Source: Amphiscolops sp. MND2022 (Eukaryota). From it: DNA of 64,000 nucleotides. Location of the stretch: positions 65,350,001 to 65,414,000 of the forward strand of contig OZ076409.1 in assembly GCA_964187785.1 (NCBI GenBank), given 5' to 3'. The notes below the pieces were generated by a model. It did not search any database, was not told where the DNA came from, and worked only from the letters and a program-made list of their open reading frames with translations. Of this stretch, positions 4,771-7,319 are shown one piece after another (the stretch's first letter is position 1; every line of letters begins with the position of its first letter). Position numbers and translations under genes: made by a program.

Positions 4771-7319
4771 ATGTGCAGTGAATTCTTTATAATACTCATT
4801 ACGTGCTACACCCTCATCAATGGCCTTCCGAACCCCAATCTGGACGACATTGCACAGGGACTCAGCGTGTCACATTATGATTGTAGAGAGATGACTGAAA
4901 ACAAATTATATGCACTAAATCAAGTGAGACCCTGCCACGTTTCATCGGAAAACATTGAAATCAACCCAGCTAAAATCACCGTCTACACAAAGCACTTCCG
5001 AACAGAAGTCAACGCTACTATGTGCCGCCTCAGGCACAGTAGATTCAGATGGCACTGTGGATATCATGACCATGCAAGTATTGACGCCGAACAAAACACA
5101 ATCACGAGCGATATCGACCTGAGTATAGGACAATGCCGAAGAGCACGAAAAGAAGGAAAAATACAAATACTAGACCACATGGTCCAGTTCAAAAAAAGGA
5201 CAAAACTCGTCCAATCCTACACTAATGGGAAAAAAAGCGAAGAAAATAGAAACCATTGCAATGGAAGGTCTTGGATGACTAAAGACACTTTTGAAAGCCA
5301 CATCCAAGAGGTGACTCTACCAGCTTAACTTAGAGATGGAACAGTACAATTCTTGCAACAGTAAAATTTGTTTAAATTTTACAATTGTTTAAAATTTACA
5401 ACATATGTCAAGTAGCATTTTCTAATATTGTATTTCATTTTAGTCAACTTTCAGCCGAATTCGACCAAAGATGAAGCCCGTCTTTCATGACATTCCAATC
5501 ATCGTTATCAATAAAATCAATTTCAACTGCACATGGAATGTGATGCCCGAAGTCGAAGAGACTACCATGATTGTACAAGAGTTTAACTGGAGCTGGCATC
5601 CAGCAGCAGATGTGGAAATTCGTTTCCACAAATACAGGTCAAAGCAAACGTACCATAAATGGTCAAAACCGGGATCATTTCTCTACATGTCTCTCACATC
5701 AGCTCTAGTCACTTACAAAAGGAAACCAGAACCGCAACTCTCTAAACAGGACATTGATGCCTTGAGCGCCATTACGGACCAAATGTAAATGGGAATCCGT
5801 TTCCATGTAAACTCCAAGATCTGGGTTGCCAAAGCACATCCTTGGATCCCTATGCTTATATGTGGGATCACCCAGATAATTGCGTACAGTCAGTTTTGAA
5901 GGAAGAACAAGTGAACATGATTAAAAATGAACATCGTTATCACATGGTGAGTACTAACGCCTCCACTTCCAAATTCTTGTTCGAAGTGAAAAGCTACCCC
6001 CAGAAATTCTGTAATAAACAGATCGATGTTTACTAAACAAACTACGAGTCCATCTACATTGTAATACATACTGGCGGATTTGACATAGCCTGTGGAAGAA
6101 AAATGGGAGTTATAAGAGGATCCTATACCCTCCAATACTCCACAGACAACTCTGGGAAACCTGGACTTAATATATACAACAGAGATGCCACAGTTAAAGA
6201 CAAGTATGTAAATACTTGGCTCCATATGGACTACGAAATGCAAGTTGGCACCAAATTGGACTACCTATTCTTCGAACGCACCCGTGCGCTTCAATTGTCT
6301 GAGATTTCAAATGTTAAAAAACCAATGTGAGCAAGAAAGGACCCAAATCCTCACTATATTGATGCTCTCTTTGGATAACCCACGCCTTGCAGGACATATG
6401 CTAACTAGAAACAGATCTATGTTCCTTGAAACTGATGGCAGTCTTGCTTGGCTCTACTCCTGTCCCTTAATATCATCACCCCTTCATGTCATGAATAATT
6501 GTTATAACAAAATACCCATCTTCTACAAGGGCCAAATTCAATTCGTAGATCTCATCACCCGACAAACTTATCCTAATGCGAATACTCAAAACTGCACGGT
6601 TAGAATCAAAAATCTTTTCCAACTGGATATGCAAGACAAGGATTCCTGGTTTTCGTTAAACCCAGCACCTACACACAGAGACAGACCTGCCATTTTTGGC
6701 CCAAAAGAAATAACTCCCTTTACCAAGGATGCCTTCATCTCAGGATGAATCTCAGGATGCTGGAATGTATACAAAAGGACAGCTCAGTGATTTTTGGGAC
6801 AATATTTTGCATAGCGCAGCATCTAGAAATGCTTTACAAAAGTTTTCACGGGAACTAATTATACCTTCAGCCTCCAACAAAGGCCCCGATGAGTTTGGTT
6901 ACTATGCACCCCGTACAGATTGCTACGTGGACAACATGATATCGCCACGATACTTCAAAGAGCAGTTCATAAGCACCTTTGGTATCATTGAATACTGGTT
7001 TAGCAAACTGGGACAATGGTTTGGAGGATTTCTTCTGATCAATTGTTTGGTTTATGTAATTGTCATAACGTTCCGCTCATTTGAACTACACCGAGTAACA
7101 GGAGCTTCTTGGGGTATCGGTAAAATACTCCTCTCAGCAACCTACAATTTGTTTACAGTATTAATGATATCAACGCTAAATCAGATTCCCCAACATGACC
7201 CAATGACTTCAAGTACTCCACCCGATAGAAACTACAATGAGCACGAGACTCTTGAGCATAATTATCCTGCCATAACAAGACCCCCTACATCAACTATCCA
7301 TACGGTTTCACCAGTATAA
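4771..7319 (+). pseudogene. env: Envelope glycoprotein of chuvirus/jingchuvirus G type; stops at ~5326 and ~6034, frameshifts at ~6300 and ~6740, insertion 5351-5786
   Basis: Signal peptide; motifs HYDC, CRLRHSRFRWHCGYHDH, KNQCEQER, LYSCP..CYNKIPI..FVD..TR; C-terminal hydrophobic TM. This matches the Cys/His spacing I recall for chuviral glycoproteins (YDC, C..RTIYYCGMHSH, KCELE, CY.ELPV). Confidence 0.8.
5351..5786 (+). repeat. Copy of the ORF A region (~2363-2800) inserted into env
   Basis: Direct similarity to 2363-2800; the env reading (NGNPFPCKLQDLGC) resumes at ~5787. Confidence 0.9.

Follow-up and report, generated by a model that had tools for sequence, protein, structure and literature searches.

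A decayed gB-type envelope gene of a probable errantivirus-like Ty3/Gypsy family with TRAF-like and macrodomain cargo

The stretch of DNA analysed here, a 64,000-nucleotide segment referred to as the window, contains at 4771-7319 on the + strand what we read, with a probability of about 0.85, as the decayed env of a multi-copy Ty3/Gypsy LTR retroelement with an envelope protein of the HSV/gB type (chuvirus-like, class III), operationally an errantivirus sensu Chary and Hayashi. The most likely layout of this family is LTR - gag - pol (protease, TARG1-like macrodomain, RT, RNase H and integrase) - spacer - env - TRAF-like gene - LTR, with a spacer between pol and env that most likely extends over several kb and holds small ORFs and 58-bp repeats. 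The errantivirus label fits the family and not the broken relic at 4771-7319, whose env is interrupted in five places and which has no pol in 900-4700. This copy is dead and incapable of producing Env.

The features of the window that bear on this reading are listed below. Copy A is the element copy that holds the env pseudogene, copy B is a sister copy further downstream, and P0001, P0050 and P0236 are the natural Env, Pol and TRAF-like proteins used for comparison.

1..979, + strand: duplicate of 3934-4910 (96%), ending in a 46-codon env stub at 840-977 and running off the window start
1487..2478, + strand: internal region X between pol and env, common to copy B at 17007-17834 (70-72%), no match to the family Pol
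2394..2910, + strand: ORF Y, an accessory ORF in pieces in the ORF list, no Pfam family
2982..3429, + strand: array of 7-8 copies of a repeat of ~58 bp, each able to fold into a small hairpin
4771..7319, + strand: env pseudogene of copy A for a gB/chuvirus-type class III fusion glycoprotein (88% to P0001, whose model gives the fold)
about 5347..5781, + strand: 435-bp insertion within env, copied from the ORF Y region further upstream in this element (2380-2799 against 5385-5785, 91%)
7860..8644, + strand: TRAF-like gene, a short N-terminal part and MATH/TRAF-C, here in two frames (PF21355, E 5e-22)
8628..10817, + strand: putative 3' LTR (or LTR and leader) of copy A, TG start and CA end, start boundary inferred, one copy
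11365..12425, + strand: LTR/leader of copy B (73% to 10027-10817; also matches 9299-9642)
12440..13750, + strand: gag relic of copy B, CX2CX4HX4C knuckle read at 13143-13403 (E 1e-8 to the gag of locus L003; zf-CCHC_4, E 0.035)
13874..16158, + strand: pol relic of copy B with protease, macrodomain region and RT, ending before RNase H (65% to P0050)
21201..22131, - strand: integrase-end relic of the same Pol family, inverted and adjoining an assembly gap (193/310 = 62%, P0050 residues 1434-1769)
23999..24660, + strand: second, older TRAF-like relic, probably of copy B (67% to P0236)

The env copy and its protein family

In the ORF list of the window, the env copy consists of six open pieces on the + strand. 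Three of these six match the Pfam family PF24664 (Monjiviricetes_fusion), two above the cut-off (E 8.6e-13 and 2.8e-13) and one below it (8.1e-4). The first env piece, used as a query, retrieved 7 proteins out of 193 candidates, each belonging to PF24664 and none with a name. The best of them, P0001, is a natural protein of 702 aa whose 90% cluster has 133 members. Four of the env pieces together span 701 of the 702 residues of P0001 with 88% identity (624/706), and the limits given to the gene by an earlier, sequence-only reading of this DNA were recovered, the ATG being read at 4771 and the stop at 7317-7319. The damage consists of two stops (5326-5328 and 6034-6036), the 435-bp insertion and, near 6310 and again near 6740, a change of frame. 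The source of the insertion lies at about 2350-2799 in the window, and both junctions show short common sequence, which would fit a template switch. A second env 5' stub (840-977) is found within the 979-bp duplication (96%). Given the common junction sequence, the internal duplications appear to resemble reverse-transcription template switches.

All the structural work was run on P0001, not on the broken copy of the window. According to a Kyte-Doolittle scan only, P0001 has two hydrophobic stretches, a signal-peptide-like one at 1-19 and a membrane anchor at 603-621; the protein also contains four N-glycosylation sequons, and the furin-type site R-x-K/R-R is absent. Fourteen cysteines are invariant across 14 aligned family members, and all 14 are readable in the window copy. 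The signal peptide, Cys pattern and transmembrane segment noticed from the sequence are borne out. The AlphaFold2 model of P0001, built on a 74-row alignment (pLDDT 78.7, pTM 0.55), has long beta-strands up to residue 330, followed by a 46-residue helix at 344-389 and a further beta domain, and ends in a helical anchor at the C-terminus.

With this model, Foldseek against the PDB gave herpesvirus gB in every row listed (best E 9.8e-15, 11% identity, TM 0.24). Against BFVD, the top matches were the glycoproteins of Tacheng tick virus 4, which we take to be a chuvirus, and chu-related, xinmovirus and qin-related glycoproteins (best E 3e-34), P0001 showing 13-17% identity to the ten best viral matches. 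VIA-align also placed gB first (Z 10.1, 398 aligned, rmsd 13.4) and recovered the rhabdovirus G of Chandipura and rabies viruses and the thogotovirus GP of Bourbon and Thogoto viruses at Z 5-6. Over the whole structure the scores stay low (TM 0.24-0.43, and an rmsd of ~13 A in the top VIA match), probably as a result of domain movements in the monomer model. A PDB sequence search with P0001 and a profile search with alignment A2 both returned 0 matches, so the link to gB is a structural one alone. As three class III groups were recovered, the class III fold is well supported, and with it the predicted role of the window-family Env as a class III fusogen matching chuvirus-like G and herpesvirus gB. 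The proposal of a chuvirus-type class III glycoprotein thus agrees with the Pfam, Foldseek and VIA-align results.

The PF24664 bit score of P0001 is 134, vs 614 for the env of locus L015; on these scores, 'chuvirus-type' is a fair label for the family, without implying close kinship. The Env clade is wide (1330 representatives at E<=0.001). A tree of 39 Env proteins places the window family in this wide clade together with the pol-linked loci described below and far from L015; it comes from a quick search, has long branches and many open forks, and serves for coarse grouping only. Among the P0001-cluster members listed, three are 99% identical to P0001, and 7 of 15 are at least 660 aa long. 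At L015:886-6053, the core PF24664-type env (614 bits) precedes a gag and protease of Ty3 type, giving an env-gag order, on a contig of 27% GC.

Copies A and B in the window

Between its duplicated start and env, copy A contains region X, of which 1487-2159 aligns with 17007-17689 in copy B at 70-72% (scores of 187 and 208.5, against shuffled maxima of 55 and 39). ORF Y had no Pfam match, and its Atlas recognition was below threshold and yielded low-recognition leads only. The hairpins of the 58-bp repeats were not significant when compared with shuffles (z -1.0 to -2.0), and an Rfam scan of the window gave 0 matches. A look-up of sequencing runs covering 3900-8700 returned none, which counts neither for nor against the element. 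On the 3' side of env, a short acidic ORF is followed by the TRAF-like gene and then by 2.2 kb of non-coding DNA.

The LTR-like stretch of copy A shows a weak purine tract, the TG at 8628, a TATA-like box near 9228, repeats of ~195 bp at 9701-10247 and the CA at 10817; a donor-like site, CAG/GTAAG, was read in the sequence near 9365. It pairs with the LTR-like stretch of copy B at 73% over 700 columns (score 266, where 30 shuffles reached 59 at most), and the similarity of both stretches ends at the same CA. In copy B, 3 nt separate this CA from a TGG primer-site-like motif, which occurs nowhere else in the two stretches, and the ATG at 12440 comes after it. In our reading, copy A ends with the first stretch as its 3' LTR and copy B begins with the second as its 5' LTR, the alternative being a shorter LTR plus leader. 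Each copy has one LTR-like end, and neither an LTR pair nor a target-site duplication was seen in the window.

Because the gag and pol relics lie downstream of the LTR-like end of copy A, they belong to copy B, whether this end is that of an LTR or of a shorter LTR with a leader. The sequence-only reading had described linked gag/pol relics and an LTR of Ty3/Gypsy type. Its Ty3-type carrier stands, as shown in the next section, but the relics at 12440-16158 are those of the older sister copy and not of the element that holds env. The pol relic of copy B matches P0050 at 65% (453/693) in 16 pieces. The two TRAF-like genes pair at 68% (7740-8550 vs 23872-24659), and no LTR match was found 3' of the second one, where scores stayed at shuffle level. 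Copy B is older than copy A, since its relics are 62-67% identical to the family, vs 88% for the env and 81% for the TRAF-like gene of copy A. No pol was found in 900-4700 on the side of copy A and no env in 16100-26000 on the side of copy B; the gag and pol of copy A would be located before the window start or have been lost. A 200-N assembly gap (20997-21196) lies within the region of copy B and adjoins the inverted integrase relic, and the arrangement of copy B across this gap is uncertain.

The window also contains, at 29716-43863 on the - strand, an unrelated and nearly intact Gypsy element with gag at 40336-41847 and pol in two frames at 35413-40348. It is bounded by identical 62-bp direct repeats that start with TG and are very short for LTRs, and it includes three long ORFs on the opposite strand (32034-35116) and one on the same strand (29575-30558), all without Pfam matches. 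We considered this element as the carrier of env and rejected it: it is 29% identical to P0050 over RT-RNase H and 22% over the integrase, has no macrodomain match and lies on the opposite strand. A 2.1-kb tandem duplication of 99.95% identity (50569-54766) and a perfect 520-bp palindrome (56366-56885) may be assembly artefacts. Cys-rich frames at 25325-25906 (-) and 55854-59963 (+) are probable host exons, the former presumably LITAF-like and the latter presumably EGF-like.

The carrier Pol and its association with env

P0050 is a natural Pol of 1821 aa with 168 members, and its Pfam domains follow the Gypsy order (RVT_1, RT_RNaseH, Integrase_H2C2, rve and Integrase_p58_C). Its top PDB matches were Ty3 Gag-Pol (E 5e-55) and the Ty3 RT (E 9e-34), followed by foamy virus, caulimovirus-type and MLV enzymes, names that we in part presume. 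The order protease-RT-RNase H-integrase with Ty3-type domains is found in P0050 and in loci L003, L010 and L013. Pao-type Pol proteins are characterised by Peptidase_A17 (PF05380) and DUF5641. Neither P0050 nor any of 25 ORFs taken from 12 loci, the pol of L003, L010 and L013 included, matched a Pao-type Pfam family, and a BEL/Pao carrier was rejected on the absence of these two domains from P0050 and from the scanned pol ORFs of the three loci. Judged by its domains, the carrier family is Ty3/Gypsy and not BEL/Pao. Residues ~120-250 of P0050, between protease and macrodomain, are unannotated and occur in L003 and L010 as well; our guess for this segment is a dUTPase-like domain.

A search of metagenome contigs with an alignment of 11 Env proteins gave 15 loci among 68 candidate stretches. 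P0001 alone as a query gave no loci in viral or metagenome contigs, and alignment A3 gave none in viral contigs. A P0050-type pol lies upstream of env on the same strand in five of the 15 loci (L003, L010, L012, L013 and L014), and nine loci, of 1.0-4.4 kb, show no pol. L003 holds gag (PF03732, E 1.5e-8), pol, env, two further ORFs and a clear purine tract followed by TG. The pol genes of L010, L012 and L013 are 81-98% identical, and these three and L014 are probably one lineage, so the direct linkage of pol and env comes from about two independent lineages. The sequence-only reading had looked to an intact copy carrying both genes; L003 provides a gag-pol-env unit among the 15 loci, and for the window's own family pol and env are associated only by shared contigs.

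This association comes from pairing contigs by exact size. The 15 listed Pol members share contigs with 5 of the 15 listed P0001-cluster members, one of these contigs being only 47.6 kb, vs 0/30 for two other Env clusters (Fisher p 0.0025); these lists hold 15 each of 168, 133, 128 and 29 members in a non-random order, and the controls may come from other assemblies. Likewise, the 33 TRAF contigs paired with 4/15 Pol, 4/17 close-Env, and 0/17 and 0/15 control contigs. Such pairing, the only linkage basis for the window's own family, shows shared contigs and not a single element or LTR pair. The lists also place P0209, a full-length Pol, and P0019, an Env of 692 aa, on contigs identical in size. 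Two more multi-copy Env families, P0004 and P0006 (29 and 128 members, 54-59% identical to P0001), have listed contigs that share none with the Pol P0050 or TRAF lists, and these families probably have their own Pol.

It could be argued that the env-TRAF block belongs to a non-autonomous, pol-less derivative copied in trans by the P0050 family, whose autonomous element would have no env. The lack of pol in 900-4700 of copy A and of env in 16100-26000 of copy B would agree with this, as would a family prone to internal duplication and deletion. However, copies A and B have the LTR-like stretch, region X and the TRAF gene in common, the relatives hold pol and env in one unit, P0209 and P0019 occur on contigs of identical size, and the stretch of copy B contains an assembly gap and an inversion. 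We consider such a derivative improbable and retain a single family that carries both genes.

Compared with P0050 and P0001, L003 is 73, 60 and 41% identical over RT-RNase H, integrase and env, and L010 is 57, 41 and 30% identical. Env diverges together with pol, which suggests that they are long-standing partners. This bears on the independent env capture proposed by the sequence-only reading, a claim that we do not maintain. If this Gypsy lineage had recently and independently captured a chuvirus glycoprotein, that would explain why the nearest viral structural neighbours are chuvirus and chu-like G, and the distance of the window env from that of L015, which is of the core PF24664 type (20% identity, very long branch), points to a history separate from that group. 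Against such a capture stand the identities of 13-17% to the ten best viral matches, the width of the clade (1330 representatives), whose members with context are Gypsy-linked, the parallel divergence of env and pol, and a published survey which, in the text available, already describes Gypsy elements with such an env and argues for an ancient partnership (PMC13524379). Nothing in the sequences points to a fresh capture of env from a chuvirus, and we regard this explanation as very improbable. Hardly credible at all is a stand-alone viral insertion, or a BEL/Pao (Anakin-like) env, merely near Gypsy debris: chuviral glycoprotein insertions flanked by fragmentary Gypsy sequences with no clear capture are described in the part of an insect study consulted (PMC10084718), and the pol relic of the window lies outside copy A, but no Pao-type Pfam family occurs in P0050 or the 25 ORFs of 12 loci, the relatives are directly Gypsy-linked, L003 by itself largely refuting the idea, and the family has 133 clustered copies, 7/15 of those listed being at least 660 aa.

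Accessory cargo, known elements and significance

The TRAF-like gene is 81% identical to P0236 (250 aa, 61 members). The top PDB match of its family is TRAF1, its Pfam matches are to MATH families only, and no RING or zinc finger was matched in the gene. One identical TRAF sequence is present on 16 contigs which, together with the three Env proteins at 99%, suggests a recent spread of the family. The second accessory domain lies in Pol, where residues 270-395 of P0050 match human TARG1/OARD1 (E 1e-9; 3.7e-11 as domain alone), with an aligned lysine and aspartate that we take to be the TARG1 catalytic residues. This macrodomain is absent from L003 and L010, the two loci spanning that part of Pol. 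Among the related loci, accessory ORFs have no match to those of the window, and the TRAF gene is found in none. L003 has two paralogous accessory ORFs (9651-12092, 35% identical to each other) 3' of env where TRAF would be, with weak coiled-coil-type Pfam matches, and L006 has a weak relative of them. The slot 3' of env holds differing cargo by lineage. Directly 5' of env, an ORF of 277-313 aa without a convincing Pfam match is present in L008, L010, L012, L013 and L014.

Chary and Hayashi reported 1512 env-carrying Ty3/gypsy elements across invertebrates, many with an HSV/gB-type Env, for which, in the text available, they argue an ancient origin (PMC13524379). With these elements the window family shares the Ty3/gypsy Pol, the gag-pol-env order in its relatives, the multi-copy state and a gB-like Env with signal peptide, membrane anchor, conserved cysteines and no furin site, as far as the parts of the survey consulted describe them (PMC13524379). 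It differs from the elements described there by a spacer of several kb with small ORFs 5' of env, the TRAF-like gene 3' of env and the macrodomain in Pol. In the main text of the survey neither 'TRAF' nor 'macro' occurs; in its supplements 'macro' appears in files 2 and 7 only, the four rows shown being species names, and no acoel is named in the text or supplements available (PMC13524379). Four family motifs compared with the supplements, whose long cells were available in part, gave one unrelated match, which does not imply absence from the survey (PMC13524379), and the window lineage may already be catalogued, for example within the survey's elements.

Anakin, a BEL/Pao element of mosquitoes, is likewise an LTR element with a chuvirus-like glycoprotein, according to the portion of the report consulted (PMC7642597). 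The window family differs from it by a Ty3/Gypsy carrier, the lack of any Pao-type domain and an env remote from the PF24664 core (134 vs 614 bits for L015). The glycoproteins of Jingchuvirales/Monjiviricetes resemble its Env by PF24664 above cut-off, the best BFVD matches and the class III fold, whereas the window family is only 13-17% identical to the ten best and is carried by an LTR element; among the ORFs scanned, neither a nucleoprotein nor an L gene was found beside env. In Burro, the planarian giant Gypsy, env homology and MATH/TRAF-C also occur together, the latter as a separate accessory ORF in one species; however, in the sections consulted, the Burro env is F-type-like and lies in frame between gag and pol in a polyprotein of ~5000 aa, whereas that of the window family is gB-type and a separate downstream gene (PMC6431247). 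A macrodomain is also carried by fish epsilon-like endogenous retroviruses, but as an extra ORF in a true retrovirus in the description available (PMC4977317), whereas that of the window family is TARG1-like and lies in a Gypsy Pol between protease and RT. We also considered Troyka, which according to the accessible text has CG...CG ends, a CX2CX8-10HX4C knuckle and no env (PMC12440569), and rejected this identity on the TG...CA ends, the CX2CX4HX4C knuckle and the env of the window. In the mostly open-access literature, taken without Repbase or the survey's figures and sequence files, no Gypsy element combining a gB-type env with TRAF and a macrodomain was found. What we did not find in print is thus the cargo combination, a RING-less TRAF 3' of env with a TARG1-like macrodomain in Pol; the pairing of Gypsy with a gB-type env is already known.

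By analogy with class III fusogens and Drosophila errantiviruses, intact copies of the family would make a signal-peptide-led, membrane-anchored Env trimer. This trimer would fuse Gag-derived particles with host cells and thereby allow the element to pass from other cells into the germ line. Spliced RNAs are the probable source of both Env and TRAF. As for the cargo, the RING-less TRAF would most likely act as a decoy adaptor in signalling of the TNF/Toll type and compete for receptor tails with the TRAFs of the host, and the macrodomain would most likely strip ADP-ribose from element proteins or nucleic acid, both roles being only loosely suggested by the domain matches. Taken further, these features would describe a 'complex' errantivirus. 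Such a Gypsy lineage, spreading recently and possibly hosted by animals that the survey did not cover, would use a gB-type fusogen to pass between cells and would bring along a counter-defence kit (RING-less TRAF decoy and TARG1-like ADP-ribose eraser) acquired once it had separated from L003 and L010. We put this forward tentatively, as an extension that is rather doubtful for the moment.

As the combination of Gypsy with a chuvirus/gB-type env has been published, the window family adds a lineage and no new class. The published screen allowed 500-1000 nt between pol and env, or examined 3-5 kb downstream, in the part of the survey available (PMC13524379), and the wide spacing of pol and env in the window family could slip through such screens. 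A multi-copy family with near-identical intact Env and TRAF genes makes the spread and control of gB-type errantiviruses testable in one host, and its two accessory domains point to TRAF signalling and ADP-ribosylation as host defences acting on a retrotransposon. If the 'complex' errantivirus is real, the host would fight the element through TRAF-dependent signalling and ADP-ribosylation, and the kit would parallel the accessory genes that complex retroviruses carry as well as RNA-virus macrodomains.
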